Shown here: in pieces, positions 2,200 through 30,047 of the stretch
Layout of the letters: each line of letters starts with the position of its first letter
Position numbering within the stretch: the first letter of the stretch is position 1
From: Methanoregula sp.
GTDB taxonomy: Archaea; Halobacteriota; Methanomicrobia; Methanomicrobiales; Methanospirillaceae
Direction: 5' to 3'
Length of the DNA: 40,000 nucleotides
NCBI RefSeq assembly: GCF_041645475.1
Contig: NZ_JBAZQA010000002.1
Coordinates: 227,320 to 267,319 of the forward strand
Notes under the pieces: generated by a model
Databases searched by the model: none
What the model was told of the DNA's origin: nothing
What the model saw: the letters and a program-made list of their open reading frames with translations, nothing else
Program-made: the position numbers and the translations under genes

Positions 2200-3205
2200 T
2201 TGCTCTGTAGAAAAGATTTCTTTGAGTGAGAATCGAGCAGAGATTAACCAAAAGATCTAAGGTACGGTGTCTCCTTACAATGTTATGCGAGTAACGAATA
2301 AGGAGACAATAAAGAAATCGTCAGGCCGGTTTATCAGTTTTATCAAACATGCATTCTCGTTAGTACGTTCATCTCATCTCTCGCTGTATTCCTGCAAATA
2401 TTCGAGAAGAGATTATACCCAGCATCAACTTCTGACATTACTTCTCTTCAAAGAATATCGAAAAGAAGACTACCGAACGGTTATCTGGAATCTCGAAGAG
2501 ATGGACCGGATCCGGGAAGCCTTGGTCTTACGACAATTCCGCACTTCACCACGCTTCAGAAATTTCTCTGCCGAATCAAACCCATCTACTTCGATATTCT
2601 CTTAAAATGTACCCTGAAACTATTCTATTTCCCCGAAGACACAATTCCGATTACTGCCATCGATTCATCCGGGTTTACCAGCGGATATTGCAGTCATTAT
2701 TACTCGGAAAGAACCGGAAAGATCCGAAAACATTTCCTGAAAACTTCGATTGTTGTCGATATCGAACTGCAGGTTATCATCGGATTTATGATATCGAACA
2801 GCCGAGTCCATGATTCCCGACATGCTTTCTCTCTTCTGAAAAAATGTCACAAACTCCTTAAATCGCAGTGTTATGTCATGGACCGTGGATACGACTCCGA
2901 GAAAATGCACCGGTTTATTCGCGAATCTCTTCATGCAGACTCGATTATTCCAGCTCGTTCTCATCAATTTTCCACGAATGTCTGGGGGAAATATCGAAAG
3001 GAGATGACCGAGAATTTTGATTCAACTCGCTATCGAAAACGGTTCCTGGTCGAAACCAAGTTCTCCGTCATCAAACGGAGGTTCGGAGCTGACCTGAAAT
3101 CCCGAAAATTTCAGACCCAGATGAAGGAAATCTCTTGCAAGATCATTCTCGCTAACATTGACAGGTTCATACAATTTGTTTGGAGAATGGTTTTCTACAG
3201 AGCAA
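2200..3205 (+). mobile_element. Insertion sequence (~1 kb, IS4/IS5-type DDE transposase) with perfect 15-bp terminal inverted repeats
   Basis: TTGCTCTGTAGAAAA (2200-2214) is the exact reverse complement of TTTTCTACAGAGCAA (3191-3205). Both ends are flanked by A-runs, a possible target duplication. The repeats enclose a DDE transposase reading frame. Confidence 0.7.
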
Positions 3206-3261
3206 AAAAATTATGCGTGACCAGGAGATCTGAGAAATGTTGGGTTGAAGTATTCTTGTGA
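2267..3261 (+). pseudogene. DDE transposase (DDE_Tnp_1-like) interrupted by one -1 frameshift near 2518-2522
   Basis: Motifs VMDRGYDS and YRKRFLVETKFSVIKRRFG. The N-terminal part (…QHQLLTLLLFKEYRKEDYRTVIWNLEEMDRIREA) is in the frame of 2267. The continuation (LGLTTIPHFTTLQKFLCRIKP…AIDSSGF…) is in the frame of 2788-3261. No obvious slippery heptamer at the junction. Confidence 0.7.
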
Positions 3262-3279: not shown

Positions 3280-5004
3280 TCAATCAACAAATTCGGCCAA
3301 TTTTTTATTTTTTGGAACAGCTTTCGATACAATCTGTATCATATCTCCGATACCTTTTGCCTTGATGAATCTAAATTTATTATTTACTAAATTTCCGAGA
3401 ACAAGTCGATACTTATCCCCAGCAATAACCGCGATCGTATCATATTGAATGAGATCTTGTTTCAATTTAATTTCAACATTCGGGCGGATTTTTTCCACGT
3501 CACAAATAGTATTTAGGCGTTGATCATAAGTCTCTAGGGAGAACTCTGGAGTTATTAACCCATGTTTTGCTGAAATAATACGATAGTCAAAATGCATAGC
3601 TTCTGCATAAGCACGTACTTTTTTAAACAGGGTTCCTTGGTAGAGTTCTTTTGCCATTACCTTGCCGTTTGATCCCTCTTCACAAGTGAGTTTGTTTTTC
3701 GAGCACCCGGTAATTACTAAAACATTTTCTTTCCCTTTTAAAAAATCCAGATTTGTTCGTTCGAGTGATCTGATTTGTTTCTCTAACTCTTTCTTTTTAC
3801 ACCGTTCCCATTTTGCTTTATCTTTCAAAATTTCATTAAATACGAACACATTATGAAAACCTCTCCTCCGGTTGCGATTATTTCCACGAAATATCACGAC
3901 ATCAATTTTAATTTCCTTGCAAATTGGGCAGGAGCATTGTTTCCAAGGTTTAGATTCCAATGTCCGTTGATAATACTTCAATAACTCTGGGTCTTCATGC
4001 ATTCGCTCAATAAATTTTTTTAATTTTTCCATGACTTTCTTAAGAGAGATCTCATCGTCATCGAATTTTCTTAAAGAGTTAAGACAATCGTTTGATAAAC
4101 TCGCATATTCATCAGGGTCGATGAATTCTAATTTTTCTTTCGTTAACTTTGATGGTATCCGGATTGCTGAATACCCTGTCCACGATTGATCTATATAATT
4201 AAATTCTGTATGTGCAGAAGTCAACCACGCTTTTCGGAGATGTGATGATGAATCAAACGACGTGGAAATTCCCATATCATCAAGCTCTTTGAATTTAGAG
4301 AATAGTGAATATCGTGCCACTCCGAAAAAATGAATTAACTCTGGCTTCTTTTTTGTTTTATTGATATCTTCAATTAAGGCCTCGATTAGTTGAATAATAA
4401 ATGTGGTTTGTGTTCGTACCAAACCACCAAATGCGAAATGTCGAATTCCATTTTTGTAGAACTTATTGAACATTAGAAGATAATCACGAATTTCAGCACC
4501 TTGAACCGCAACGATTAGCTGAAAATCTTCCTTATACTTATTTTTCCACTCATTATGTGCTTCAACACCGTTTTTGAATGTAATTTCTATACGTTGTTTG
4601 TTTTTTTCCTTATGCATAGGAACAACTAAATGGTCAATGCTAACTCCATAATTGAAATCTAAGTCGCTGTAAATTTTTAAAACATCGGATGTTTTATAGG
4701 GAGGAATTTCTTGATCGATATATGAAAAAGCGCCACAATCCGCGAGAATTTGAAAATCCTGTGGTAGTCCTAAAAAGCTATGAATGCCTTTATCGAGAAT
4801 CGATTTGTATTTTCTTGTGTTTTGCTGAAGATTCGCAATAGAGACAAGAACTCCATCAAAAGGGACTTTTTCTTTCTCGAAGATATCCCACATATAGGAG
4901 TCGTTTTCCATAGGATTTGCATTATGCATCGCAGAATGGGAATCGGTTGAAAAATCATAGCCGGGATCGACCCGGTCGTCCCACTCGGGGATGAAAAAGC
5001 GCAT
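3280..5004 (-). CDS. TGT-fold (DpdA-like transglycosylase) protein fused to a C-terminal DUF6884-like domain
   Basis: The N-terminal ~395 aa carry the ordered TGT signatures: ILADCGAFSY (cf. DSGGFQ), HFAFGGLV (cf. AIGGL), IHFFGVARY, TSFDSSSHL, and zinc motif CSCPIC-x21-H (nt 3853-3936). C-terminal aa ~427-565 (nt ~3310-3726; VLVITGCSKNK…AKELYQGTLFKK…IISAKHGLITP…YDQRL) fit my recollection of DUF6884. Confidence 0.7.
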   Translation of the reverse strand: MRFFIPEWDDRVDPGYDFSTDSHSAMHNANPMENDSYMWDIFEKEKVPFDGVLVSIANLQQNTRKYKSILDKGIHSFLGLPQDFQILADCGAFSYIDQEIPPYKTSDVLKIYSDLDFNYGVSIDHLVVPMHKEKNKQRIEITFKNGVEAHNEWKNKYKEDFQLIVAVQGAEIRDYLLMFNKFYKNGIRHFAFGGLVRTQTTFIIQLIEALIEDINKTKKKPELIHFFGVARYSLFSKFKELDDMGISTSFDSSSHLRKAWLTSAHTEFNYIDQSWTGYSAIRIPSKLTKEKLEFIDPDEYASLSNDCLNSLRKFDDDEISLKKVMEKLKKFIERMHEDPELLKYYQRTLESKPWKQCSCPICKEIKIDVVIFRGNNRNRRRGFHNVFVFNEILKDKAKWERCKKKELEKQIRSLERTNLDFLKGKENVLVITGCSKNKLTCEEGSNGKVMAKELYQGTLFKKVRAYAEAMHFDYRIISAKHGLITPEFSLETYDQRLNTICDVEKIRPNVEIKLKQDLIQYDTIAVIAGDKYRLVLGNLVNNKFRFIKAKGIGDMIQIVSKAVPKNKKLAEFVD

Positions 5005-5062: not shown

Positions 5063-6046
5063 TTACGGATATCTTAACTCATGAGGACTGCTCGGACAAT
5101 CCCATCGTTTATCACAAGTTGTACAGGTATCATCTCCAGGAAGGTTCTCCGCAGTTGGAGCATCCCAACGTTCAACTTGTTTACAGTGTTCAATATTTTT
5201 AACAGTATGGTGAAATTCGTCGAGCGCTTCATGAATATTTTCTATATTTGCGGGATCAGTAAAATCTAATGAAAAGATTGCTTTCTGTCGCATCATTAAA
5301 ATTTGTTGTTCTGATGGATTTGGAATTGCTCGACTGGATAATTCATTTAAAAAATATAATACTCCTTTTTTTGGGTATTTTCCAGTTTTCAAATGATACA
5401 TATAAGCGTAAACAAGTAATTGAAAACGATAATTTTGCATTCTTCTTTGATTTTGTTGATTTTGTGGTTGATGCAATGGATTTTTTGCAGCTTTATAATC
5501 CCAAATTTCTACTAGATCATATTCTTCTGGGATCTCTTCGTCAGATGTATCTTTTAGTACGTCAACAACACCCTGTAAGATATACCCATTCTGTTGATTC
5601 TGAAACCGGTATTCAGTATCTCTAATATTGGGATAAAGGGATGCACCTTCGATCGCATTAAATTGCTGTAATATTCTTAAAGCATGTTGTTCGTCGCCAT
5701 CTCGGTCTAATGTTCGACTATATGATTTAATTCCGCGAACTCGCAAACTTTCATTTATCTGAATAAAAAAAACTTCAACATCATTTTGGGTGGGGAGTTG
5801 TCCTTGGCGTTCAGGATTCAAACGACCTTGATATTGTTGATGTAGTTTATCAAGAACCTGATGAATAATTGTTCCAAACCACAGTTGAATATTATGAGCA
5901 GGGGTATAACCTCGTTGTGAAAAAAAGCCATACTGTCTTGGACAGGTTTTATACGCCAAGATATCTCCAGTGATGCTATATGTGGGTAATGGTTCGTGAA
6001 GATCTCTTCGTGTTACAGTTATGGAATTAAATTCTTCAAATGGCAT
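5063..6046 (-). CDS. PD-(D/E)XK nuclease of the Cas4/AddB type with a four-cysteine Fe-S signature
   Basis: N-terminal Cys (YKTCPRQY) plus C-terminal CTTCDKRWDC gives C…CX2CX5C. Nuclease core GVVDVL…VEIWDYK and QLLVYAY (QxxxY). Likely start is ATG 6046, preceded by AGGGGG, 11 nt after the helicase stop. The ORF-track start 6130 would overlap the helicase. Confidence 0.75.
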   Translation of the reverse strand: MPFEEFNSITVTRRDLHEPLPTYSITGDILAYKTCPRQYGFFSQRGYTPAHNIQLWFGTIIHQVLDKLHQQYQGRLNPERQGQLPTQNDVEVFFIQINESLRVRGIKSYSRTLDRDGDEQHALRILQQFNAIEGASLYPNIRDTEYRFQNQQNGYILQGVVDVLKDTSDEEIPEEYDLVEIWDYKAAKNPLHQPQNQQNQRRMQNYRFQLLVYAYMYHLKTGKYPKKGVLYFLNELSSRAIPNPSEQQILMMRQKAIFSLDFTDPANIENIHEALDEFHHTVKNIEHCKQVERWDAPTAENLPGDDTCTTCDKRWDCPSSPHELRYP

Positions 6047-6056
6047 GAAATTCCCC

Positions 6057-8399
6057 CTAAATAAAATGAACAATTTGTCGAAAACGATTTGGATCTCTTC
6101 CAATAATACCAAATCCAGTTTGGTTATCACCAGTTCGACTTATCCGAAGTTCCTGTTGTGTCAATAAATGAATCAATGCGCATCTTGCTCTTGAATAAGC
6201 TACAAAATAAAATCTTATTTTGTCTTGAGCGGATTTGTCGTGACATGCAATATTGTTTTGAATTTGGTTTTGACAAAATGGTGCATAATCACATTCAATA
6301 TGAATTGATTCATCTTCATCGTCTTCTTGTTGACTTAATCCCCAAATAAAAACAAAATCGAATTCTAAACCTTTTGCTTGGTGAACAGTCATAATTGGTA
6401 AGTGATTAGGAGGTGCGATAATCTCATCATCCTCAGGATCATTTTCGCCGTATGCCATTAGACGAGTAACAAAGAGTTTATAAAAATCCATTAACCATTT
6501 ATGACTGGCATACCCTCCCCGACTACTCGCCCAAATTTCTCCACGATTCGATCTTCGATTTTGATCAAAATAAGGTATTGCAGAAAATTGTTCAAATAAT
6601 GATGATAATTTTCCTAATCGGTACGTTCGTTCAGGATCTTCTTTCCAGTTAGAAAACGGTTGCCGAGAAATAATAAGATAGAATAATTCCGCCATTGACA
6701 GTTTTAGTTTTTCTTGAGGTTGTTTTTGTCGAATACGCCTAGTGGCTTCGTTAACATACATCGATAATTCGGCAGAATTAGGTGCAATTCGTTGATATTC
6801 CTGGATCCATTGCTGTACATTTCTTCCAATATTATTTTTTACCGCCGTTCCTCCTCTCATATACCTAATTCCTTCCAGGTCAGGATCAATAATTGATATA
6901 AATGCTCCAAGAGCAACCGCAATTTCTTCTTGAACCAAAAATTGTCGAGATCGGGGGTTATAAGGAGTGATTCCTTGATTTTTTAATTCATTTACAAATT
7001 GTAATGCATGTCTACTCGTCTCTCTAACGGATTTCATTAAAAGAACGCATTGGCTATAATCTTGAATTTTATTATTGTCATGTAACCATTTGACCATCGA
7101 AGCAAACTGACGTGCAGTATCAGATTTTGTATTCGTGCGAATACAGGTAACAGAGGGATAATTTCCATGAACTTGTGAACCGAATACCAATCTCGGTTTG
7201 TTTTGGATTCGAGCTCCAGGCATATTCATTTGAGGAAATGAAAGAAGATATTCGTTACAATATTCAACGATTTTTTCATGTGAACGATAATTTGTATTTA
7301 AGTAACGAGATGTACATTCGACGCTCCATTGTTGTTGACATCTTTGACTAAAATTAACAATGCATTCAACAGTGCCTCCTCTGAAACGATATAAGGCTTG
7401 ATCATCATCACCAACAATACAAATATTATGAGGGGCATTTCGTGACAGAGAGAAATAAATTAATTCCTGGATTGGATTTGTATCTTGATATTCATCAACC
7501 ATCAAATACTCAAGTCGAGGATACATTTCATAATTCTCGGGATCTCCATCGACAAACAACCGTCCGTGAGGGGTGTTAAGAAATTCTAAAAATTTTGATT
7601 GTAACGTTGAAAAATCACATCTTTGAAAATGTGTTAATTGTTCTTGATATTGCTCGAATCCCTCAACAAGAAGTCGCCACGAATCCCCAGATTCGCGCAT
7701 TAAATTTAAGTTAATTCGATATTCTGTAATCCGGTTGAATAAATTAATTGCAGCTCTCGTGAGCGCCCATTTATTTGGTGGATATTGATGATTATTCCAC
7801 CCTCTATATCCACTTACGGGGTCATATTTTTCAAATAAATAATCAAATTGCTCGTAAACAGGAAGATAATGATCATCTTCTTGAACGAGATTCGAATGTT
7901 CAAATGTGAAAAGGAATTGTTCAAAGTCATCCATTAATCGGAAATTTTGATAATCCGGTGAATGATATTCTTGCATCACATCATTACAGAGACTATGAAG
8001 AGTACAAATTCTAAGATTGTAAATATCAATTGATTCCTGTAATTTTGGATGGTGCTCAAAAAAATATTCTGCGCCAGTGATAATCCTTTCTTTGATATTT
8101 TTTGCAGCCTTTTCAGTGAACGTTGTAACAATTATTGATTTGGGATCAACATTTCGAACAAAAAGAAGATAAAGCGTTCTTAAAACAAGCGTTTCAGTTT
8201 TTCCCGACCCAGGACCAGCAATTATGTGCAATGGACCATTTGTGTGAGTGATGATTTTTCCTTGTTCATTTAATATAATCTCACCGGCGGCATTCGTATT
8301 ATAAATTCTATATCCTAAACGAGGTTCCAATAATTGACTGAATTCTTGAAATTCCATGTTATCCATCCGGTGGTTGTACTTGTTTATTACGGATGTCAC
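6057..8399 (-). CDS. UvrD/Rep-family SF1 DNA helicase
   Basis: Walker A IIAGPGSGKTET, motif II MVDEYQDTNP, YRFRGG and TVHQAKGLEFDFVF. The start may be one of the downstream ATGs (8366 or 8357). Confidence 0.9.
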   Translation of the reverse strand: MTSVINKYNHRMDNMEFQEFSQLLEPRLGYRIYNTNAAGEIILNEQGKIITHTNGPLHIIAGPGSGKTETLVLRTLYLLFVRNVDPKSIIVTTFTEKAAKNIKERIITGAEYFFEHHPKLQESIDIYNLRICTLHSLCNDVMQEYHSPDYQNFRLMDDFEQFLFTFEHSNLVQEDDHYLPVYEQFDYLFEKYDPVSGYRGWNNHQYPPNKWALTRAAINLFNRITEYRINLNLMRESGDSWRLLVEGFEQYQEQLTHFQRCDFSTLQSKFLEFLNTPHGRLFVDGDPENYEMYPRLEYLMVDEYQDTNPIQELIYFSLSRNAPHNICIVGDDDQALYRFRGGTVECIVNFSQRCQQQWSVECTSRYLNTNYRSHEKIVEYCNEYLLSFPQMNMPGARIQNKPRLVFGSQVHGNYPSVTCIRTNTKSDTARQFASMVKWLHDNNKIQDYSQCVLLMKSVRETSRHALQFVNELKNQGITPYNPRSRQFLVQEEIAVALGAFISIIDPDLEGIRYMRGGTAVKNNIGRNVQQWIQEYQRIAPNSAELSMYVNEATRRIRQKQPQEKLKLSMAELFYLIISRQPFSNWKEDPERTYRLGKLSSLFEQFSAIPYFDQNRRSNRGEIWASSRGGYASHKWLMDFYKLFVTRLMAYGENDPEDDEIIAPPNHLPIMTVHQAKGLEFDFVFIWGLSQQEDDEDESIHIECDYAPFCQNQIQNNIACHDKSAQDKIRFYFVAYSRARCALIHLLTQQELRISRTGDNQTGFGIIGRDPNRFRQIVHFI

Positions 8400-8495: not shown

Positions 8496-9677
8496 TTAAT
8501 TAGAAATAATCGAAATTAAAACATCTTGCTCTATCGATTTTTTATCCAGATCTAAAGATACATCTAATGCTTGACTGGAAAGCGAAATGACTCGTCGTGT
8601 ATTTCCCTGCGAATGGATGTAAATTTGTTCAATGGATCTCTCAGTAAATGGAGAGAATGAATCATTTTTCTTTGTTCGTTTGTTATTCAGATAGGATATC
8701 AAGAGCATCCGGATCTTTTCCTGATCAAGAGGTTTGAGATTCGCTTCTTTACCGATTCGTTCTGAGAACGCATGATACTCAGCAACAATATTCTGCCAGA
8801 CTTCCGGTGCACAAGCGATGATGAGGGATAATCCCTCCCCGTTGAGATCGATAACGTGCCGGAGATAATTGAGCATTTTTTGTTTCTTCAATGAAGGGAG
8901 TGTTTCTATGTATTCAAATTCATCAATGAGAAGTATGAGCGAAGAAAAACCAAGCTCCTTAAGAATAAATTTTAGAGATCCCAATGCTCGAATTGAATTG
9001 GTATCATTGATATTTTTTCCAAGAGAAAGCTCCTGCCGTTTTGTATATTCTACACCCTCCCCACATAGCCACTCCCAAGAATAGATGGAGTTTTCTTCAT
9101 AGGATAATGCAATGAAAGCACGTGTATAATCGACGAATTTAATTCCATCATTAAGTCGTTGAATAGCCTTTGGAACAATATCTGAGATAAGTACATCTCC
9201 TTTTTCAATCTGTTTCCAACCTTGTCCTTTCCGGATTTTTTCTTCGATCAATCCTTCTTTCGATAATTGGTACGCGATAAGGCCGAGATATTCTTGGGAG
9301 ATATGTTTGACAAATGAATATCCAAGATCATACATAAATTTTGTATAGATATCGAGAAAATTCTCACCAGGTTGAGAGACATATCCAACACAGATCGGGG
9401 TATCGGATTTTTCCGAGAATTGATCTCGGATATGAGATTTAATGAATTTCAATGTATGACTTTTTCCATTCCCATATGAGCCTGTCACAATTATATGATT
9501 TGACTGTCCAGTGAGGACTGTCGATGATAATACCGAATTAATTTTTGTGAGAACCTCATCCTGTCCGATATACACATTGGGATGTTCATCAGGAACCCCG
9601 GAAAACGGAAAGGGGTTTCCAGTTAGCCCGTACTTTGAGTAATCTTTATTTTTTAATGTCAAAGTAAATTCAGTCAA
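8496..9677 (-). CDS. AAA-type ATPase with ExeA/AAA_22-like N-terminal signature
   Basis: YSKYGLTGNPFPFSG…, then Walker A VTGSYGNGKSHT and Walker B LILLIDEFEYI. Only TTG starts (9677 or 9662) precede the conserved N-terminus. It overlaps the upstream gene by 8 nt. Confidence 0.75.
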   Translation of the reverse strand: MTEFTLTLKNKDYSKYGLTGNPFPFSGVPDEHPNVYIGQDEVLTKINSVLSSTVLTGQSNHIIVTGSYGNGKSHTLKFIKSHIRDQFSEKSDTPICVGYVSQPGENFLDIYTKFMYDLGYSFVKHISQEYLGLIAYQLSKEGLIEEKIRKGQGWKQIEKGDVLISDIVPKAIQRLNDGIKFVDYTRAFIALSYEENSIYSWEWLCGEGVEYTKRQELSLGKNINDTNSIRALGSLKFILKELGFSSLILLIDEFEYIETLPSLKKQKMLNYLRHVIDLNGEGLSLIIACAPEVWQNIVAEYHAFSERIGKEANLKPLDQEKIRMLLISYLNNKRTKKNDSFSPFTERSIEQIYIHSQGNTRRVISLSSQALDVSLDLDKKSIEQDVLISIISN

Positions 9678-10512
9678 TTAGTTCACCGCCGTGATATGCA
9701 ACATAGTAGTATGATTTTGGTCCAACATTCAGACCGTTGAGATACTGATTTGAGGATAGTTTCATCGTTATTTTATCAGGGAGTTCGAGGAAATGTACAT
9801 TCTTCACTTTGTTAGCTGATCGTTTGGCGTGGGTTGTGACCGGAGCTCCTGCAAGCTCAATCTTTCCGATATTTTTCATACACAGCTGAATGAATCGTGA
9901 ATCAAAGGAGTCCCGGGAAATCCTCATATTCTGGCAGATATACTCGCGGATCTTGGGAATTTCTACATATCTTTGCCGGAGAGAAAGTCCGGTTTTGATA
10001 TTGAGCGATTGATAGGAATCGAGAAAGGCGGGGATAATAGAGGATGATAACTCAGTGATGGTAAAATATTGGTTGGTGAAGATATTACGTTGAATGGATC
10101 CGATACGTTCTCCCCAATCGCATAATACATCACAGGAGGCCTGATTGAAGTGAACCGGAGAAGATTGCAGGCAAGTAAGAATCTCTTCAGGTGTGGAAGG
10201 TTCAATTGATTGAAGTTGAGTGAAAAATGTCTGATAAAATGAGTAATCCATCATCAAATTATGAATACTAATCCAATTGTTTGTCCGAATATCATCTAGA
10301 AATTCAGAACCTTTTTTTGTTTCATAATATTGTGTCCCATCTTTTTCTAACAACCCAATATTCACAATCTCATCAGCAACATCTTTTCCGCGCTCTTCAG
10401 AAGATTTTAGAAATGTCGTTAGCTCTTGTTTTGAAAACGCTCTTGTCATCTCGGCGAAATAAAGTGTTTCCACAACACGACTCAACGTGACCGGGCGCAT
10501 CGTAAGCCTCAT
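9670..10512 (-). CDS. Hypothetical protein with N-terminal winged-helix-like segment
   Basis: 280 aa. SKQELTTFLKSSEERGKDVADEIVNIGLLEKDGTQYYETKKGSEFL resembles a MarR-like wHTH. The rest is unrecognised. It is translationally coupled on both sides (ATGA overlap at 10509-10512; 8-nt overlap at 9670-9677). Confidence 0.5.
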   Translation of the reverse strand: MRLTMRPVTLSRVVETLYFAEMTRAFSKQELTTFLKSSEERGKDVADEIVNIGLLEKDGTQYYETKKGSEFLDDIRTNNWISIHNLMMDYSFYQTFFTQLQSIEPSTPEEILTCLQSSPVHFNQASCDVLCDWGERIGSIQRNIFTNQYFTITELSSSIIPAFLDSYQSLNIKTGLSLRQRYVEIPKIREYICQNMRISRDSFDSRFIQLCMKNIGKIELAGAPVTTHAKRSANKVKNVHFLELPDKITMKLSSNQYLNGLNVGPKSYYYVAYHGGELID

Positions 10513-11540
10513 ACAAAACCTCCGACTTTAGATTTTGCATATTTGTACGCAATTTTAATCTGAGCGCTATTCATGAAACGATAATCAAGGTACGATTCAA
10601 GATCGCCTTCAAGAATGTGCATCTTCAATTTTCTGATTTCATATGAGATCATCCAGAGGTTATGCATCCCGATAAGTCGTCGTTGAGATCGAACTTGTTC
10701 AAAGGAATTTTTACTACAAACCGGACAAACACAGGGAAGCATTTCAGTTTGTGGCAATTCATTGAATGCAAATGATTTCTGTTCCGGAGCAAAGTATACC
10801 CGATTTGATCCGGCGGATAGGAAGGATGATGAATCGAATGAATCAACACCAAGGTATGTCAACAAGGGAATCATTGCTGGTCCACCTAATCCGAACACAT
10901 GCAATGGTTTCTCCCCGGTCCGTTTTCTGATAGCGAGGATAAGGTCAATAAGATGACGATAATTCGATCGTTTTAAAATTAATCCCCCGATTGCAAATCC
11001 ATTAAAATTTCCTTTACGGTTGAGATAATCGATCATATTCGTCATTACTTTGATATCATTGCCGTGAATGACTGCATAGAGGAGCATATCTTCTCGCTCT
11101 CGGTTTTTCGAAGCGAGGAGGGCATTTTTTACTGTTCTTTGGATATACTCAGCATGTTTATCGTCAGAAATATTGTCAGTGATGAAAACAGGTGCATCGA
11201 GTGTTGCGGCGATATCGGCGCCAATTTCTTCCTGGATTCGTAAAATTTCTAGTGGATCTATAATTGCATTATTCAAACGACTTTGTAATCCGCCACTATC
11301 TGCAAAAAAGATCCCGTTAAATTGGAAATGGTTATGAAGTCCTTTTGTACTTATTCGTTTGAATTTTTCTGATTTACTTATATAATGGGCATTCACAAGC
11401 ATTGTTCTCATTTCAGGAATTTCATTCCAATATTTCGGAAATGATCCGGTTCCTTGTTTATTCAGATGAAATACAGGAAAGAAGATCGGAGTTTCTAAGT
11501 TACCGTGCGCAGTTTCTATAATTTTAATATTAAACGGCAT
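10509..11540 (-). CDS. Catalytic-domain-only tRNA-guanine-transglycosylase family protein (DpdA-like)
   Basis: HGNLETPIFFPV, FFADSGGLQS, GFAIGGL, LHVFGLGGP, GVDSFDSSS and zinc motif CVCPVCS-x17-H. At 343 aa it has no PUA or other C-terminal tRNA-binding domains. Confidence 0.8.
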   Translation of the reverse strand: MPFNIKIIETAHGNLETPIFFPVFHLNKQGTGSFPKYWNEIPEMRTMLVNAHYISKSEKFKRISTKGLHNHFQFNGIFFADSGGLQSRLNNAIIDPLEILRIQEEIGADIAATLDAPVFITDNISDDKHAEYIQRTVKNALLASKNREREDMLLYAVIHGNDIKVMTNMIDYLNRKGNFNGFAIGGLILKRSNYRHLIDLILAIRKRTGEKPLHVFGLGGPAMIPLLTYLGVDSFDSSSFLSAGSNRVYFAPEQKSFAFNELPQTEMLPCVCPVCSKNSFEQVRSQRRLIGMHNLWMISYEIRKLKMHILEGDLESYLDYRFMNSAQIKIAYKYAKSKVGGFV

Positions 11541-11558
11541 TTGAAATACACCACTTAT

Positions 11559-11589
11559 TGATTAGCCTAATTTATAGTTTAGCTAATCA
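11559..11589. promoter_or_regulatory. Inverted repeat TGATTAGC-n15-GCTAATCA enclosing a bidirectional TATA-like element in the divergent promoter region
   Basis: Perfect 8-bp arms (11559-11566 and 11582-11589). The spacer CTAATTTATAGTTTA reads TTTATA on the + strand and TATAAA on the - strand. It sits between the minus-strand operon start (11540) and the wHTH-queC operon (11619). Confidence 0.4.
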
Positions 11590-11618
11590 TAACTATAAGT
11601 ATCTTTTGAAATAATGTT

Positions 11619-11900
11619 GTGAAGGATATGGTATCATTTATTCCAAAATTTCTTTTAACAGATCTCGCGGTGTTATTTTCAAAATTTGGTTACAACGAAT
11701 TTGCTTTTCAAAATGCACTCGAATTGCTTTCACATGATTATAGATATACCTCAATAATTTTATCAAAACTTGAAAAATCGGGATATATTTCAAAACGTCA
11801 GGATCCTTCAGATGGGAGAAAAAGATTCTACAAAATTAATAAAATTAATTTTGAGGATATCATGAAAGAAATAGGAGGAAACAGGAGGGAGAGTAAATGA
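11619..11900 (+). CDS. Small winged-helix (MarR-like) transcriptional regulator
   Basis: YTSIILSKLEKSGYISKRQDPSDGRKRFYKINK is a typical wHTH recognition helix plus wing. ATGA overlap with queC. The start is GTG 11619 or ATG 11628. Confidence 0.65.
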   Translation: MKDMVSFIPKFLLTDLAVLFSKFGYNEFAFQNALELLSHDYRYTSIILSKLEKSGYISKRQDPSDGRKRFYKINKINFEDIMKEIGGNRRESK

Positions 11901-12553
11901 ACTCACGTGCTGTGATAATTCTATCCGGGGGAATGGACAGTACAACTCTTCTTTATGATCTCATCAACCAGAAATACTCAATCCATGCAGTCACTTTCGA
12001 TTATGGACAGAAACATAAAAAAGAGATTTCCTATGCGATAAAAACCTGTGAGCGATTAAAAATTCCACAGAAGATAATTGATATAAATATTCTGAATGAT
12101 CTCGCACCATCTTCACTAACGCGAACCGATTGGGAAGTCCCTGAGGGGAATTATGCAGATAACAACATGAAGCAGACCGTTGTTCCCAACCGGAACATGG
12201 TTCTGCTTAGTCTTGCTGCAGCTTTCGCAATTGGGATCAAAGCCACTCACCTATATTACGGTGCACATTCTGGAGATCATGCAATTTATCCGGATTGCCG
12301 ACCGTCATTCGTTAGCGCAATGGCGACTGCATTTCATCTCTGCGACTGGGATGATCTGACCTTATCTGTACCATATCTTCAGATGTCCAAAGGAGATATT
12401 GTCAAACGCGGATTGTCCCTCGGTGTTGATTATTCCAATACATGGACGTGTTACAAAGGAGAGGAAAAATCCTGTGGAAAATGTGGCTCGTGCGATGAAC
12501 GATTAGCTGCGTTTCGGGAAGCAGGTGTAGACGATCCGTTGGAATATCAATAA
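11897..12553 (+). CDS. queC: 7-cyano-7-deazaguanine synthase QueC
   Basis: PP-loop ILSGGMDSTT, FDYGQKH, and the C-terminal zinc cluster CYKGEEKSCGKCGSCDER. The length (218 aa) is typical. Confidence 0.92.
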   Translation: MNSRAVIILSGGMDSTTLLYDLINQKYSIHAVTFDYGQKHKKEISYAIKTCERLKIPQKIIDINILNDLAPSSLTRTDWEVPEGNYADNNMKQTVVPNRNMVLLSLAAAFAIGIKATHLYYGAHSGDHAIYPDCRPSFVSAMATAFHLCDWDDLTLSVPYLQMSKGDIVKRGLSLGVDYSNTWTCYKGEEKSCGKCGSCDERLAAFREAGVDDPLEYQ

Positions 12554-12652: not shown

Positions 12653-13039
12653 ATGGGTAGATATGGAGAATGTGCAATTCTTGCAACAAAATTCTTAGCA
12701 GAAAAGAATATAAAAAATCCAAGGGACGCATGGGAACTAGCTATTTCTAAATTAGTGAAGAATGACCCGAGTGAATGGGTCATGAAGAAGGGATGTCCAA
12801 GAGCTGCATTCCTTAGCCTTTGTGAGGAGGGCCTTGTTCGAGGAGTGGACTGTGGAAAATATACGAGATCAACTAAAAATTAGGCATATGCATTAAATGC
12901 TGTAAAGGAATTAGGTCAAATCTCAAAACCAGTTAAACAATTGGAATTATGGCGAAAAATAGGAAATCAATTTGCTCATTCAGGACAGATGGACGTCGTT
13001 CTATCCCTATGGGACAATGATCTAATTTTGAAAAAATAA
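12653..13039 (+). pseudogene. Conserved-looking hypothetical gene interrupted by a single in-frame TAG (12881-12883)
   Basis: After the TAG the same frame stays open and protein-like to TAA 13037-13039 (…YTRSTKN*AYALNAVKELGQISKPVKQLELWRKIGNQFAHSGQMDVVLSLWDNDLILKK). The KGCPRAAFLSLCEEGLV and QMDVV segments resemble a family I recall as DUF6979-like. Confidence 0.55.
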
Positions 13040-13295: not shown

Positions 13296-16200
13296 CTAAA
13301 TCCCCTTCCCCGCCTTCTTCATAAACCACGCCGGAATCTCCGCATCCAACCGCCACACAATACTCATCGGCTTACTCCCCTCGTGACTCACATACCTCGC
13401 CGTACCTAAGCACACAAACGGCTGCGAAACATTCCCGACCTTATTGAACTCCCGGACAAACAGCAGCACCTTTGAACCACTTATGTACCGCTGCCCCGTA
13501 GGAGACGATGCCGATGTTGTGCTCTGGGACTGCCAGTGAAAGAGCCGCTCGCTTATCGCGTAATCGTTGTACATCGTGGACGGCGAGAAATGCTTCTCGG
13601 ATTTATTGAGCGTGATGAAAAACACATCCAGATTCTTCTCCCGGAGATACAACACACCCTCGCGTTTGCCGGCAACGCTGATCTGGAATGGCGTCCAATG
13701 CCCGAGCCCCGCAAAGATCTGGTCGCGGGAATAGGTACAGTGAAGGGACAACCCGGCGGGGAACCCGAGGTCGAGCGGGCCTTCGAGCACTTCGGTCTTA
13801 TCTTCCAAGTACGCAAGGAGGCTGTCAATCTCGCGGGTCATCCAGTCAACCGAAAGGAACGGCTGCATACCCGTGAGGAGATCCGTGGTCCCCGCAAGTG
13901 GCTGCGTGTGGAATGAATAGTAGAGTATCGCAAGACAGGTGTCACGCCGGGGATCTTCCTTTCCGGCAAACTCAAAACTTTTCATTGCAAGGAACTGTCG
14001 GATGAACCGGATCATCGAGACCGAGTTGAGCGGCAGCAACCGTCTCGCAGCAGTGACAATGCGTTCCTCCTCATCGGGCGTAGGAGCGGAACACAGATGA
14101 GCCTCAGCACACAATTGCCGGAAACTCGACCGCCCGTAGATCTCCCGGGGTTCGAGCACAAAATATTCTAAGAAATTCCCAACCTCCAGCGCCTTCCCGG
14201 ACTCCGCTTCGAACCGGGCAATCTTCTGCACCAGCCCCTTCCGTCGGGTGAGCGATTGTTCAATATGCGCAAGGACCGTCTGTTGCGCAACCTTCTCCAG
14301 GCTGATGAAACAACCCCGGGGAAGGGAAAATGTATTCTCCCGAATCTGCTGCACGAGCGGCACATGCGCATCCGCCAACAGGGCCCGGTACTTTGCATCG
14401 AAATGATAATTCGCATGCTGCCGCCCGACAAAATCCAGCACCGTGAGACATTCCTTCCCCTCACAGAGCCGGAGCCCCCGGCCCAACTGTTGGAGAAAGA
14501 CGGTCATGCTCTCGGTGGGACGGAGGAATAGGATCGTGTTCACTTCGGGAATATCCACACCTTCGTTGTACAGGTCAACAACGAAAATAAACCGGATCTC
14601 TTTTGCCCTTAATTGTTTCTGGACCGATCTCCGCAAGTCATCCAAGCTTTCGGAACTCAAGGAGACTGAGGGAATACCAATTTTCGTGAAGATCTCCGCC
14701 ATATAGTTTGCATGCTCGATACTCACACAAAACCCGAGGCCGATGATATCGTCAATATCTGTGACATATTTCTTGAGCGAATCCGCAATAAGACCCGCTC
14801 GGGTATCATTCCCCGTATAGCGTTTCGAGAGTACGCTCTGGTTGTATCTTCCTCGGGTCCATTCCACATCATCGAGATCAACCGAATCCGCGACACCAAA
14901 ATAATGGAAGGGTGCAAGGAGATTTCTCCCAATGGCTTCCGCAAGCCGAATCTCCGCTGCAATCCGGCCATCGAAATATCCCATGATGTCCAGATTATCC
15001 ATCCTCTCGGGAGTTGCTGTCAGCCCCAACAGAATCTTCGGCTGGTAATGGGATAGGAGACGCTGGTACGATGCCGCTGCCGCGTGATGGAATTCATCCA
15101 CGATGATAAAATCATAATGATCGAGTGCAGTCCGGTCGGAAAATTTCGTACTGTTGAACGTCTGGATCGACATGAAGACGTGATCGGTCTGCGCAGGAAT
15201 CCTACCCGCGACCGCAATATCCCCAAAGTTCTGGTCTTTCAAAATTCCCCGGAATGTCTGGAGACTCTGCTTTAAGATCTCCTCGCGGTGCGCAACGAAG
15301 AGCAGCCGGGCCCGAGGATTCTTCTCCCGGAAGCGGCGGAAGTCGAATGCCGAGATAACGGTCTTTCCGGTTCCTGTTGCCGCCACGACGAGGTTCTTGT
15401 AATGGTTGTGGATCGTTCGTTCCGCTTCAAGGCGTTCGAGAATCTCTTTCTGGAAGGGGAATGGGGTGATGTCGAAAAAGTACGAGTTGCCATCATCTCC
15501 GGGTACTTTCCGTTCCTTGCGAACCGCCTCTTCAAAGGTTGCCCGGTCGTTCTCTGTATATCTCAAAAACTCCGGGTCATTCCAGTAACTCTCAAACGAT
15601 GCCTGGATCTTCCGGATGAGCGGCTTTGCATCTTTCTCCGTCAGCTTGACGTTCCACTCAAGTCCCGACGTGATAGCGGGATTCGAGATATTCGATGACC
15701 CGACATATGCGGTCGAGAACCCGGACTCCCGTTCGAAAAAGTAAGCTTTGGCGTGGAGCCGTGTATGTGCTGTATCGTAGGAGATCCGTACCTCTGTATT
15801 CGGTAACGAAGAAAGGAAATTGATTGCCTTGATTTCGGTTGCACCCGTATAGGCAGTCGTGATCACCCGCAACCGGCCCTTTGTACAGAATTGTTTCAGT
15901 TCCTCCATGAGAAGCCGGATACCACTCCATTTAATGAATGAGACGAGGAGATCAATCCGGTCAGCCGACAGGATCTCAGCCTTAAATTCCTGAATCAGGT
16001 TGGGTTCAAGTGAGGAGCCGGTGAACAGGCTGCTTTGCGCAAGGGGGGTGACGGGCCGGGCTGATGATCCTTTTTCGTCGCCGACCGAAAAGAGAATTTC
16101 TCCATCGCCCGATATCACACACTCGCCAAGACATTCTTCGTTCGTAATCGATGCAAGCAGTCTGATGATCTCATTACAGCAGGTGATTTGTTCTGTGGCT

Positions 16201-16388
16201 GACCCTTCTGAATTCTCCAGGAACGTGAGAGACTTCTTTAGGATCGGGCCGAGGTACTGAGCGAGAAGAACGGGCGAATCGAAATTTTTCAGGGTGTCCT
16301 TGCGGATTGTTTTATTCTGCCCACGAAGTTTTTCTTCAAGATGAGTGTTGATCAGTTGTTCGTAGAGACCAGGAGGGAGTGATTTCAT
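13296..16388 (-). CDS. PLD-family nuclease domain + SF2 (DEAD/DEAH, ResIII-type) helicase + C-terminal DUF3427 fusion protein
   Basis: HKD motif RLHAKAYFF…VGSSNIS, Walker A VVAATGTGKT, and DEFH box IIVDEFHHAAA. The C-terminal block (FFITLNKSEKHFSPSTMYNDYAISERLFHWQSQS…VLLFVRE) is typical of DUF3427. Confidence 0.85.
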   Translation of the reverse strand: MKSLPPGLYEQLINTHLEEKLRGQNKTIRKDTLKNFDSPVLLAQYLGPILKKSLTFLENSEGSATEQITCCNEIIRLLASITNEECLGECVISGDGEILFSVGDEKGSSARPVTPLAQSSLFTGSSLEPNLIQEFKAEILSADRIDLLVSFIKWSGIRLLMEELKQFCTKGRLRVITTAYTGATEIKAINFLSSLPNTEVRISYDTAHTRLHAKAYFFERESGFSTAYVGSSNISNPAITSGLEWNVKLTEKDAKPLIRKIQASFESYWNDPEFLRYTENDRATFEEAVRKERKVPGDDGNSYFFDITPFPFQKEILERLEAERTIHNHYKNLVVAATGTGKTVISAFDFRRFREKNPRARLLFVAHREEILKQSLQTFRGILKDQNFGDIAVAGRIPAQTDHVFMSIQTFNSTKFSDRTALDHYDFIIVDEFHHAAAASYQRLLSHYQPKILLGLTATPERMDNLDIMGYFDGRIAAEIRLAEAIGRNLLAPFHYFGVADSVDLDDVEWTRGRYNQSVLSKRYTGNDTRAGLIADSLKKYVTDIDDIIGLGFCVSIEHANYMAEIFTKIGIPSVSLSSESLDDLRRSVQKQLRAKEIRFIFVVDLYNEGVDIPEVNTILFLRPTESMTVFLQQLGRGLRLCEGKECLTVLDFVGRQHANYHFDAKYRALLADAHVPLVQQIRENTFSLPRGCFISLEKVAQQTVLAHIEQSLTRRKGLVQKIARFEAESGKALEVGNFLEYFVLEPREIYGRSSFRQLCAEAHLCSAPTPDEEERIVTAARRLLPLNSVSMIRFIRQFLAMKSFEFAGKEDPRRDTCLAILYYSFHTQPLAGTTDLLTGMQPFLSVDWMTREIDSLLAYLEDKTEVLEGPLDLGFPAGLSLHCTYSRDQIFAGLGHWTPFQISVAGKREGVLYLREKNLDVFFITLNKSEKHFSPSTMYNDYAISERLFHWQSQSTTSASSPTGQRYISGSKVLLFVREFNKVGNVSQPFVCLGTARYVSHEGSKPMSIVWRLDAEIPAWFMKKAGKGI

Positions 16389-18784: not shown

Positions 18785-19775
18785 TCATGGAGATTTATCC
18801 GGCTGATCGTCCCGGTCCATTTTTTCCGGCAGTTCTGTCTCTTTTAGCATACGGTCAAAATCGCTTTCAAAAAGCCGGTCCTGAACAATACGGTATTTTT
18901 CAAATTCAGACTCCGCAGCCTCTTTTGCCCTCTCTGCCGTTACTTTCCCGCCATCTTCAAGCAGTTTACGGTCATCAAATAATAGGAACAGGTCAAGACG
19001 TTGTGCCCAGTCTTCCATGGTCATTGGTATCTGTCGTCTGGCACGATTTTCAGCTAGATCCAGCCAGGCATTGACAATCCGGCCGAGTGATTCGAGCTCT
19101 TGCGAAGTCAGGTAATTTTTCGCAACCAATACATCGGTTTTTAAAATTTTTCCGTCGGGACTGTTCTCCCACGATGTCAGTCCCATGTGATCGTTTCTGC
19201 TGTCGGCTCGCTTTATTATCAGTTCGGCTGCAGTATGGCCGTGAATTGCGAAATGCAATTTGTTCTCTTACTTTTGCAAAAAAATCGCGGGTTGTCGGGG
19301 CATTCCTGCTGTAATCAATACTCGTGGCATATATGTCGGTGATCTTCTGGTAGAACCGTCTCTCGCTGAGGCGGATCTCCCGTATCTCTGCAAGTAAGCG
19401 CTCAAAGTAATCTTCACCAAGAAACGTACCGTTTTCCATCCTTTTTTTATCAAGTACGTATCCCTTGATGGCAAATTCCCGCAATACCCGGGTTGCCCAC
19501 TGACGGAACTGGGTGGCTCTCGTTGAATTGATGCGGTATCCGACCGAGATTATGGCATCAAGGCTGTAGTATTCCAGATTCCGTGAAACTTCACGGTTTC
19601 CTTCAGAACGAACTATTAGGAATTTCCTAATAGTTGCCTCACGGGTCAGTTCACCGCTCTCATAAATGTTTTTTAAGTGTTCGTTTATTGTCGGAATCCT
19701 TACATCAAAGAAAGCCCCACTGCGACAAGTCGTTCCTTCGTCTGGAAATCTTTGGCGAATGTCACGCTGAACCAA
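18785..19775 (-). pseudogene. RhuM-family (virulence-protein-like) gene split by a frameshift near 19268-19275
   Basis: IRKFLIVRSEGNREVSRNLEYYSLDAIISVGYRINSTRATQFRQWATRVL…RLSERRFYQKITDIYATSIDY…FFAKV in one frame. It continues as (K)LHFAIHGHTAAELI…GLTSWENSPDGKILKTDV…AKNYL in the next. The N-terminus also looks degenerate. Confidence 0.75.
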
Positions 19776-28953: not shown

Positions 28954-29837
28954 TCACCCCCGCTGTCGGGTCTCATGCCCGGGGGAAACCGCCGTACCGG
29001 TGTGGATGAAGGGACCGGTGTTATACCTGCCGAAGTCTGTTGTATCGTATTGATGTCCGGTGAGTCTCCGGTGATGACCGATACGGTCACATCGAGATAG
29101 TTGCCGGTCATCGTTACCTGGAACTGCCCCTCCCGGTAAATGGCAATATACCGGGGTCCCGCATAGGCAACGACCGTCCCGGTATTCTCGGTGGGATCAT
29201 CCCTGATTCCTGAATAAACCGTCCTGCCATAATTACCGGTGTCCGAACTATACTCCCCGGCATACCCGTTTTCAGCCACGATCTCATGGGTCTCGTTGTC
29301 CCGCACGGTTATGGTCAGGTACGGGCGGTTGACCGGGATGTTCAGGGTCCCCCTGCATGAGTCCGGATCTTTGAGGCAGTCGTGTTTGGGGGTGACGTTA
29401 TACCGGATGTAGAGCGGGCCCTGCACCACGTTCACATAGAGGCCCGCCGCACTCCCGTTCAGCGTGTATTTTTTGGTAAACGCCGGCTGCCGGTAGAGGA
29501 ATGGATATGATGACGTGGAATTAACCCGGACCCCGTGGATGACCGGGTAGGGATCGGGTGTTGGAACGGGTGTGAACTCCGATACCCCACTGGTTTTTAT
29601 TGGCGTGGGTTGTGACATGTGACTTTGTGGTGCGGGACGCGGTGTCTGCAGCGCAGGTGCCGGTGCGGTTGCATTTTCTCTTACCGGGTCTGAGCCGGAC
29701 GGTGTCACGATATATCCCCCTTCCGGGGATTTCGTGATCATATTGATACAACCGGCCGAACTGAGCATGAGCATGATGACCGTGGCAAGAATAACCGGGA
29801 TATACCTCACGGGGCTGTTCCTTTTTTCCGGGCTCAT
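28950..29837 (-). CDS. Secreted or lipoprotein-like hypothetical protein, first gene of the pilus-machinery operon
   Basis: From ATG 29837: MSPEKRNSPVRYIPVILATVIMLMLSSAGC is a signal/TM segment with a lipobox-like SAGC, followed by a Pro/Thr-rich linker. The 341-aa version from 29975 has an implausible leader. Confidence 0.5.
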   Translation of the reverse strand: MSPEKRNSPVRYIPVILATVIMLMLSSAGCINMITKSPEGGYIVTPSGSDPVRENATAPAPALQTPRPAPQSHMSQPTPIKTSGVSEFTPVPTPDPYPVIHGVRVNSTSSYPFLYRQPAFTKKYTLNGSAAGLYVNVVQGPLYIRYNVTPKHDCLKDPDSCRGTLNIPVNRPYLTITVRDNETHEIVAENGYAGEYSSDTGNYGRTVYSGIRDDPTENTGTVVAYAGPRYIAIYREGQFQVTMTGNYLDVTVSVITGDSPDINTIQQTSAGITPVPSSTPVRRFPPGMRPDSGGE

Positions 29838-30029
29838 GCGGTATCCCCCGCAGCATGGGTTTCCGACAGAATAATGAAGCACGGGATGCTGAGCAGGGCC
29901 CGGATGAAATGGATGAAACAATCTTTTTGCCGGTCTGATTTGCGAGTATAATCTGTCGACATTGTGCACTCTCATTACCCTGAAATCCCTGGAGCACTAA
30001 TGGGTTGGGCCGCCGAATTAATAAAGTTT

Positions 30030-30047
30030 ATTTGTTTTAAAACAAAT
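30030..30047. promoter_or_regulatory. Perfect 18-bp palindrome ATTTGTTTTAAAACAAAT in the divergent pilus promoter region
   Basis: Located in the AT-rich gap between the minus-strand machinery operon (start 29837) and the plus-strand pilin operon (start 30180). Confidence 0.3.

Follow-up and report, generated by a model that had tools for sequence, protein, structure and literature searches.

We analysed a 40,000-nucleotide stretch of Methanoregula sp. DNA (RefSeq assembly GCF_041645475.1, contig NZ_JBAZQA010000002.1, positions 227,320 to 267,319 of the forward strand; hereafter the window, whose own numbering is used throughout). The subject is a trio of overlapping genes for a short tRNA-guanine transglycosylase (TGT), a winged-helix-turn-helix (wHTH) protein and an AAA+ ATPase. 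The trio lies in a low-GC island at ~3.2–13 kb of the window, with 35% GC in a host genome of ~55% GC. On the minus strand, it heads a head-to-tail series of six genes that continues with a UvrD helicase, a PD-(D/E)XK nuclease and a DpdA-DpdC fusion. Divergent from this TGT operon, on the plus strand, are a MarR-like gene, the gene for QueC and a truncated DUF6979 gene (Table 1).

Table 1. Features of the island, in window positions.
Feature	Position	Strand	Remarks
Short TGT	10509..11540	-	343 aa; arcTGT-type catalytic TIM barrel and zinc subdomain
Triple winged-helix (wHTH) protein	9670..10512	-	280 aa; orphan family; C-terminal beta-sheet in addition
BrxD-like, ORC/Cdc6-type AAA+ ATPase	8496..9677	-	393 aa; TTG start
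UvrD/PcrA-type SF1 helicase	6057..8399	-	Pfam UvrD-helicase 183 bits
PD-(D/E)XK (Cas4/AddB-like) nuclease	5063..6130	-	Pfam PDDEXK_1 63.6 bits
DpdA-DpdC fusion (DpdA and DUF6884)	3280..5004	-	574 aa; NCBIfam DpdA equivalog 310 bits
AT-rich divergent intergenic region, 78 nt	11541..11618	.	two interleaved perfect 8-nt inverted repeats
Small MarR-like winged-helix regulator	11619..11900	+	93 aa; weak MarR, SarA and PadR matches
QueC (7-cyano-7-deazaguanine synthase)	11897..12553	+	Pfam QueC 230.8 bits
DUF6979 protein, truncated at island edge	12653..12883	+	76 aa; Pfam DUF6979 80.5 bits

An earlier, sequence-only reading of the locus had placed the overlaps within the trio at 10509–10512 (ATGA) and 9670–9677 (8 nt), and these coordinates are exact on the minus strand. 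The TGT stop codon TGA and the wHTH start codon ATG share 4 nt (10512–10509), and the wHTH and ATPase genes share TTGACTGA (9677–9670). Such spacing was the rule among the related loci: the gap from TGT to wHTH was −4 nt in 72 of 85, and the gap from wHTH to ATPase was −4, −8 or −1 nt in 79 of 85. The UvrD gene of the window begins 96 nt after the ATPase gene.

The statement that the ATPase can only start at a TTG also stood. No in-frame ATG was found upstream of Walker A (GSYGNGKSHT); other possible starts are another TTG, at codon 6, and a GTG at codon 35. The strongest candidate is the TTG at 9677, because the N-terminus is conserved in all orthologues from residue ~12 on (dY..L..NPFPy), and because the same position holds an ATG in Methanofollis formosanus, Haladaptatus and others.

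The short TGT scored 133 bits with Pfam TGT and 181.5 bits with NCBIfam TgtA (TIGR00432; profile positions 12–342 of 441), below the cut-off of 350. With the NCBIfam DpdA model it reached just 38.7 bits. The match to PDB entry 1iq8 (E 4.7e-35) was confined to residues 28–347 of the 582-aa archaeal TGT (arcTGT) of P. horikoshii, and hence the C1, C2 and PUA domains are absent. This bears out the earlier description of a 343-aa TGT with no tRNA-recognition domain. The AlphaFold2 (AF2) model (pLDDT 91.6) had arcTGT 1j2b as its top PDB fold match (TMq 0.87).

Seven residues were invariant across 47 members of the short-TGT family (D81, D115, D236, C270, C272, C275 and H293). D81, D115 and D236 correspond to arcTGT D95, D130 and D249, and the Cys3-His zinc site is retained. 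The general acid, the nucleophile, the Asp for base recognition and the Zn site are thus all in place. Members of the family are few and patchily distributed (122 clusters at 90% identity; E ≤ 1e-10). A housekeeping split arcTGT was rejected on island composition, rarity and gene context. The genomic context described below suggests DNA rather than tRNA as the substrate.

No Pfam or NCBIfam family passed for the wHTH protein. Its AF2 model (pLDDT 88, pTM 0.86) contains three tandem winged helices and a C-terminal beta-sheet. Foldseek returned only generic multi-wHTH proteins (SelB, RPC62, MarR; E ≥ 2e-3), and no specific structural homologue could be assigned beyond such winged-helix arrays. 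Relatives were few (77 clusters at 90% identity; 192 clusters at 50% identity among 1.84 billion representatives), and those with names were methanogens and haloarchaea.

The third protein is an ATPase, as the sequence-only reading had it, but 'ExeA-like' is an imprecise label: its best match is the Pfam family BrxC_BrxD (PF10923; 54.3 bits against a cut-off of 22.2), and AAA_22 barely passes (29.3 against 27). PADLOC gave BrxD at 9.4e-12, NCBIfam BrxD (NF033438) scored 41.5 bits, below its cut-off of 350, and there were hints of orc1/cdc6. Walker A (YGNGK) and Walker B (DEFE) are invariant across orthologues, and the N-terminal 30 residues, with an NPFP motif, are conserved. A profile search found no PDB relative of the ATPase.

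The last gene of the series encodes, as judged from its domains and motifs, a fusion of a genuine DpdA with a DUF6884 domain of the DpdC type, whose activity is predicted. The 574-aa protein exceeded the cut-off of the NCBIfam DpdA equivalog (NF041059; 310 bits against 200) and matched PDB entry 7ui4 at E 8.5e-53. PADLOC gave DpdA at 278 bits and DpdC at residues 443–494, and Pfam DUF6884 scored 65.9 bits. A 1008-aa haloarchaeal version had a stronger PADLOC DpdC match (5e-10). In 23 diverse members, D89, D124, D251, C357, C359, C362 and H384 of the DpdA half were invariant, which retains the equivalents of 7ui4 D95, D130 and D256 and the Zn site. In the DUF6884 half, the putative catalytic residues C434, K438, S478 and A479 were invariant. 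DUF6884 and DpdC are the same family (PMC11888242), and DUF6884 resembles YaaA (PMC11701544).

The gene order TGT, wHTH, ATPase was found in ~90 loci of Methanomicrobia, Halobacteria and Bathyarchaeia. Hosts of the trio are Methanoregula, Methanofollis, Methanosarcina, Methanoperedens, Haladaptatus, Halomarina and Bathyarchaeota. The order is kept in Methanoregula metagenome-assembled genomes (MAGs), M. formosanus, Methanosarcina sp. Mfa9, Haladaptatus, Halomarina and 80 metagenome loci; it differs in the Bathyarchaeota locus (ATPase, TGT, wHTH). The closest relatives of the window proteins were from Methanoregula MAGs. Dereplication at 90% wHTH identity gave 67 clusters, of which 34 had at least 5 kb of flank on both sides. 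All 34 also encode a TGT and an ATPase. Conservation of the trio as a unit in other genomes, proposed earlier as a check, was therefore found across three archaeal classes. The islands that contain it are defence islands.

IMG/VR held no relative of the wHTH protein, and 50,697 GenBank phage records held no trio-type TGT, the sole match being one weak Staphylococcus phage hit. The window contains no tRNA gene, and the island edges carry no integrase, only a transposase fragment. A viral origin was rejected on these grounds.

In 24 of the 34 clusters, no more than 10 kb separate the DpdA-DpdC gene from the trio. In at least four further clusters it lay farther along the same contig (M. formosanus, L009, L015, L032; L numbers denote related loci), eight genes from the trio in M. 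formosanus and beyond a four-gene insertion in L009. The pairwise-identity matrices of TGT and DpdA-DpdC correlated with r = 0.955 (18 representatives) and r = 0.985 within methanogen-type loci. This is as high as within the trio, and the UvrD and PD-(D/E)XK genes are exchanged independently. The trio and DpdA-DpdC are thus inherited together as four genes.

The sequence-only reading had proposed the trio as a possible functional analogue of DpdA/DpdB. This did not hold, since a genuine DpdA sits in the same island and co-occurs and co-evolves with the trio. The short TGT is therefore a second transglycosylase, not a DpdA surrogate.

The same data bear on a possible RNA substrate of the short TGT. 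On this view the enzyme would be a mobile arcTGT without PUA and would place preQ0, or some other base, in tRNA or other RNA of the host or of viruses, with the wHTH protein and the ATPase as regulators and the linkage to DpdA as mere co-location in a defence island. Its nearest relatives in sequence and fold are indeed tRNA enzymes (TgtA, 181 bits; 1j2b), and its pocket and catalytic residues are arcTGT-like. However, the TgtA score is far from the cut-off of 350, all tRNA-binding domains are missing, and the family is rare and patchy and sits here in a 35%-GC island. Its strict coupling to the triple wHTH protein and the ORC-like ATPase also argues against this alternative, and simple co-location does not predict co-evolution with DpdA-DpdC across classes. 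We regard it as very unlikely.

The island also carries a gene for preQ0 supply. QueC, whose product supplies preQ0, scored 217 bits with NCBIfam TIGR00364 (cut-off 150) and was present in 16 of the 34 trio clusters. Halophile and Bathyarchaeota loci have a full FolE-QueD-QueE-QueC set beside DpdA-DpdC and the trio. A homologue of the MarR-like protein occupied the same divergent position in methanogen-type loci (14 of the 34 clusters). Between the TGT and MarR-QueC operons, the inverted repeats TGATTAGC/GCTAATCA (11559–11566 and 11582–11589) and TTATAGTT/AACTATAA (11572–11579 and 11591–11598) interleave. They may be a putative operator/promoter, possibly for the small MarR-like protein. DUF6979 stood beside QueC or other preQ0 genes in L006, L007, L009, L010, L019 and L097. 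The window copy covers profile positions 1–74 of 127, and the Bathyarchaeota copy is full length (138 aa; L097, 3134–3550). DUF6364 was likewise recurrent (L004, L014, L097).

In the bacterial Dpd system (dpdA–K of Salmonella Montevideo; Thiaville 2016, Yuan 2018, Gedara 2023 PMC10164549), DpdA requires the ATPase activity of DpdB for insertion into DNA (PMC10164549). No DpdB was found here. A phmmer search with Enterobacter cloacae DpdB gave no match at E ≤ 1e-3 in open reading frames of at least 80 aa from the window and ~100 related loci, and PADLOC gave no DpdB match in the window or in the related loci scanned. DpdD, E, G, H and I of the E. cloacae plasmid also had no match in the ~100 loci; DpdA, J and K did match. 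PADLOC found no dpdD–K restriction genes in the window. Since no DpdB homologue occurs in ~100 loci, its replacement by the ATPase and a DNA-binding partner is plausible. Accordingly, of the earlier proposal that the wHTH protein and the ATPase supply DNA targeting and energy, the part that makes them a stand-in for DpdB remains plausible, and the equation of the trio with DpdA/DpdB does not.

Taken together, the trio very probably belongs to a Dpd-like system that lacks DpdB and serves 7-deazaguanine modification of DNA and defence. It is most likely part of an apparently undescribed Dpd-like variant and not a stand-alone replacement because it travels with a genuine DpdA and with preQ0 genes. 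Most likely, the wHTH protein and the ATPase load one or both transglycosylases on DNA in place of DpdB. The scheme that we favour for the sharing of work, at about even odds, has these two proteins act on DNA to let the short TGT swap guanine for preQ0, and DpdA-DpdC insert preQ0 elsewhere or mature the base.

In this scheme, preQ0 would be supplied by QueC together with FolE, QueD and QueE of the host or the island. The triple wHTH protein and the ORC/Cdc6-type ATPase, perhaps in a physical complex with the TGT, would bind and remodel double-stranded DNA, which is the role of the ParB-like DpdB in bacteria. The short arcTGT-like enzyme would then flip the guanine and exchange it for preQ0. 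DpdA-DpdC would act in the same pathway, either placing preQ0 at further sites or converting the nitrile of inserted preQ0, for example to the amide ADG; the latter option is modelled on ArcS, which acts after arcTGT on tRNA. Linked and exchangeable effectors would spare the marked genome. Here these would be UvrD and the PD-(D/E)XK nuclease, and in relatives YprA/DpdJ-like helicases with PLD or DNA2-like nucleases.

The pairing of two transglycosylases is not confined to archaea. Plasmids of Nostoc (pNOS3756_2, L100), Picosynechococcus (L102) and Paenibacillus (pART37, L101) encode a long DpdA and a short TGT of ~310 aa, and no dpdB is annotated near the long DpdA in these plasmids. The Nostoc long DpdA matched the archaeal DpdA-DUF6884 fusions with 318 bits. 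The trio TGT matched the short TGT of Nostoc at E 6e-30 and that of Paenibacillus at ~1e-11. The cyanobacterial short TGT has a DEAD-box helicase on either side. The Paenibacillus gene stands ahead of those for a 246-aa protein, a 1055-aa P-loop protein with weak DpdH similarity, DpdJ and DpdK. The pairing of DpdA-DpdC and a short TGT thus predates the archaeal trio.

Several observations weigh against the proposed DNA modification system or its division of labour. The short TGT is nearest to the tRNA enzyme arcTGT, not to DpdA, in both sequence and fold, and arcTGT without its PUA domain is reported to be still able to modify tRNA (Sabina and Soll 2006). With a genuine DpdA already there, a second DNA transglycosylase looks redundant. 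The short-TGT relatives of Nostoc and Picosynechococcus are flanked by DEAD helicases, not by the wHTH/ATPase pair, and so the ATPase is not a universal partner of short TGTs. Methanoplanus limicola has a DpdA-DUF6884 gene with no trio within 10 kb, in a locus full of insertion-sequence (IS) elements. If the wHTH protein and the ATPase were homologous to DpdG and DpdH, they would point to the restriction arm and not to modification. Finally, 7-deazaguanine in the DNA of these archaea is a prediction from gene content.

Alternatively, all four co-inherited proteins could form one machine. DpdA-DpdC would then be the catalytic subunit, the short TGT an obligate TGT-fold partner as QTRT2 is for QTRT1 of the eukaryotic TGT, and the wHTH protein and the ATPase the replacement of DpdB for DpdA. 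The co-inheritance of the trio with DpdA-DpdC (r about 0.95–0.985) fits this arrangement, as does the fact that a long DpdA(-DUF6884) and a short TGT occur together, without DpdB, in the Nostoc, Picosynechococcus and Paenibacillus plasmids. By comparison, DpdB-type plasmid loci have dpdB beside dpdA, a comparison that covers dpdB adjacency only. TGT enzymes are generally dimers (PMC5699537). Against such a machine, the short TGT gene is translationally coupled to the wHTH and ATPase genes, not to DpdA, and in the window it lies 5.5 kb and two other genes away from DpdA. Moreover, every catalytic residue is kept in the short TGT, whereas QTRT2 has lost its nucleophile, and a purely structural role is therefore unlikely. 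We consider the four-protein machine an unlikely alternative to the two-enzyme scheme.

Three types of candidate effectors were found near the trio. The first is the UvrD and PD-(D/E)XK pair of the window, also present in L095, L098 and L103; the pair follows DpdA-DUF6884 in M. formosanus, M. horonobensis and L103 as well. UvrD identity was low where other genes of the island were nearly identical (48% against 93% for the ATPase between the window and L017; 57% against 95% for DpdA between L007 and L018), and the identity pattern of PD-(D/E)XK across relatives is that of UvrD. The pair is thus exchanged as a unit among Methanoregula relatives, which suggests a swappable effector module. The UvrD helicase is a candidate effector partner within it.

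The second type, a cassette of five genes, occurs in M. formosanus, Methanosarcina Mfa9 and M. horonobensis. It is linked to the trio and DpdA-DpdC in M. formosanus (L001/L095, CP037968), L003 and L098; the sequence of the Methanosarcina Mfa9 locus ends inside the cassette. Its genes encode a 268-aa wHTH paralogue, an 1118-aa AAA protein, a DpdJ-like DEAD helicase, a ~690-aa protein and a 1062-aa PD-(D/E)XK-AAA_12 'DNA2-like' protein. The third type is a ~1850-aa DEAD helicase with PLD nucleases. The Bathyarchaeota helicase has an MZB domain and matches DpdJ/YprA models; for the haloarchaeal helicases, the assignment is based solely on size and Pfam domains.

In some Methanoregulaceae (L009/L103, L008, L015), four genes are inserted between the trio and the UvrD, PD-(D/E)XK and DpdA-DpdC genes. 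They encode proteins of 280 aa, ~900 aa and 463 aa and a HerA-like ATPase. HerA-like genes lay near the trio in 7 of the 34 clusters.

The wHTH protein and the ATPase are paralogous to the 268-aa and 1118-aa proteins of the cassette (hhalign 96%, E 2e-9; phmmer 4e-11), the hhalign result being that of the trio wHTH against the 268-aa family. This paralogy fits a reusable DNA-targeting module. Identity of the wHTH protein with DpdG and of the ATPase with DpdH was rejected. The wHTH and 268-aa profiles gave a probability of <1% against E. cloacae DpdG (single sequence on one side), and the PADLOC DpdG models had no match among fifty distant wHTH relatives. The wHTH profiles gave <2% against the Paenibacillus 246-aa protein (single sequence on one side, so that distant homology is possible). 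The ATPase profile matched DpdH in the P-loop only, with a probability of 32% and the same limit of a single sequence on one side and possible distant homology.

These paralogues raise the alternative that the trio belongs to the discrimination or restriction arm, with the short TGT as a sensor. Loaded by the wHTH protein and the ATPase, this TGT would probe guanines in incoming DNA. A 7-deazaguanine could not be excised, and marked self DNA would be spared. Unmarked DNA would yield a covalent ribosyl-enzyme intermediate or an abasic site, and this adduct or site would flag it for the UvrD/PD-(D/E)XK or YprA/PLD nucleases. Such a role would suit the paralogous 268-aa and 1118-aa pair at the head of a helicase-nuclease cassette, the Paenibacillus short TGT directly upstream of the 246-aa and DpdH-like 1055-aa proteins and then DpdJ and DpdK, the cyanobacterial short TGT embedded between two helicases, and UvrD and the nuclease downstream of the ATPase in the window. 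DNA glycosylases are an established antiviral effector class (bioRxiv 10.1101/2025.10.29.685425). However, a competent TGT in a cell that contains free preQ0 would complete the exchange and so modify the DNA, and the haloarchaeal trio lies directly after DpdA-DpdC and beside the preQ0 operon, like a biosynthetic or modification unit. To our knowledge, a TGT acting as a sensor is without precedent. Overall, the sensor appears distinctly unlikely.

A broader version of the modification scheme is tentative, and we think it doubtful. Here, archaea and their DpdB-less cousins in cyanobacteria and Paenibacillus would share a DNA-marking machine with two non-redundant transglycosylases. The modification enzyme and the restriction helicase-nucleases would reach the same sites by way of paralogous pairs, each made up of a wHTH protein and an ORC-like ATPase. 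The two transglycosylases might each write a 7-deazaguanine derivative of its own or mark two strands or two motifs, or one might write and the other read by attempted excision. If true, this would be the first case of 7-deazaguanine modification in the chromosomes of cellular archaea and a new solution to the problem of ATP-dependent base flipping.

Compared with the bacterial Dpd system, the archaeal island shares a genuine DpdA orthologue with its catalytic Asp pair and Zn site, a DpdC-type DUF6884 domain and preQ0 biosynthesis genes. An ATPase is presumably required for the DNA transglycosylation step here too. The loci of relatives moreover have DpdJ-like (YprA) helicases and DpdK-like PLD nucleases. 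Unlike Dpd, the archaeal loci searched have no DpdB (a ParB/DndB-like ATPase with DGQHR), and DpdA and DpdC are fused. They add an arcTGT-like transglycosylase, a triple-wHTH protein and a BrxD/ORC-like ATPase, the window has only UvrD and PD-(D/E)XK as effectors, and the hosts are archaea.

Another close described system is BRIGADE (Bell et al. 2025 preprint, PMC12458937). As presented in the preprint's text, it is Dpd-like and combines a 7-deazaguanine biosynthetic cluster with YprA helicases and with nucleases of the PLD or PD-(D/E)xK type; a DNA2-like helicase-nuclease is sometimes present in addition. It is reported as exclusive to halophilic archaea (PMC12458937). By that description, the haloarchaeal loci L011, L012 and L047–L094 match BRIGADE, and the methanogen cassette resembles BRIGADE type I. 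The window likewise holds QueC, DpdA-DpdC, a short TGT and a PD-(D/E)XK nuclease. However, the preprint's text defines BRIGADE by one or two YprA-family helicases, ARMADA-like or DpdJ-like, and the window has none, only the UvrD-type SF1 helicase; YprA/DpdJ-like helicases occur in the related loci L003, L095, L097, L011 and L012. The trio also extends beyond halophiles (Methanoregula, Methanofollis, Methanosarcina, Bathyarchaeota). The text and supplement of the preprint, figure S1 excepted, make no mention of the TGT, the triple-wHTH protein or the small ATPase (PMC12458937). In the literature, we found no description of the trio itself or of the methanogen and Bathyarchaeia versions.

A second parallel is the arcTGT/ArcS pair of tRNA modification. 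In both cases, a catalytic preQ0-inserting TGT (here, a predicted one) is accompanied by a second TGT-fold paralogue with an extra domain, and a Cys-x3-Lys motif acts on the inserted nitrile, a function that C434...K438 of DUF6884 might serve here. The short TGT superposes on the arcTGT catalytic domain and keeps its Asp pair and Zn site. The differences are the failure to reach the TgtA equivalog score, the missing C1, C2 and PUA domains, a gene context of DNA defence and not tRNA, and the added wHTH and ATPase partners. In addition, the second paralogue is here a DpdA with its own catalytic aspartates retained.

In BREX type 2, an ORC/Cdc6-type ATPase is found beside a helicase in the BrxD-BrxHI dyad and is proposed as a loader (PMC12839542). 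The trio ATPase is similarly a stand-alone member of the BrxC_BrxD family whose gene neighbours that of a helicase within a defence system. It differs in its distance from the BrxD equivalog (41.5 bits, cut-off 350) and in its coupled partner, which is a transglycosylase. BREX genes (PglX, PglZ, PglW, BrxHI) were found neither in the window nor in the related loci. For BREX-related capture (BRC) with GNAT/TGT, described in a 2026 paper, an NTPase is proposed as a substitute for DpdB (PMC12839542). There too, a TGT homologue is recruited to defence, in BRC without DpdB or DpdC. However, the defining components of BRC (HerA/FtsK, PglZ, DUF6079, a STAND NTPase and DUF4007) are all missing from the window. 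Identity with BRC was rejected as PglZ, DUF6079 and DUF4007 are absent.

So far, 7-deazaguanines have been reported in the DNA of bacteria, phages and archaeal viruses and not yet in cellular archaeal chromosomes, according to the introduction of PMC13329287. The trio module predicts such marking in methanogens, haloarchaea and Bathyarchaeia. Because cultured carriers exist (M. formosanus, Methanosarcina sp. Mfa9, Haladaptatus sp. ZSTT2 and Halomarina oriensis), a direct test of the prediction is feasible. The module also bears on how a TGT fold gains access to guanine in duplex DNA: through the ParB-like DpdB in bacteria, and here possibly through an unrelated ORC/Cdc6-type ATPase and a wHTH protein. 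Mining rules that require dpdAB, e.g. in GATOR-GC (PMC11888242), would miss all these systems.

The surroundings of the island contain further genes. A fragment of a DDE transposase (2788–3261) marks the left edge, beyond which lies a gene for an HTH and ImmA/IrrE-type peptidase protein (189–1313). On the other side, a 1030-aa type IV modification-dependent restriction enzyme (13296–16388, minus strand; PLD nuclease, SF2 helicase and DUF3427; PADLOC mREase_IV 719 bits) lies in DNA of host GC content and abuts the island. Since the same neighbour recurs in the Methanoregula loci L006 and L008, a defence-island hot spot is suggested.

The DNA to the right of the island has 47–63% GC and carries ordinary host genes that fit a methanogen chromosome. 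These include a RhuM-family gene (19050–19775, minus strand), an archaeal type IV pilus locus with a T2SSE/F ATPase and membrane protein and two archaeal pilins (25044–31483), and cobamide salvage genes (CobQ-like, CbiZ) at 36166–38839.

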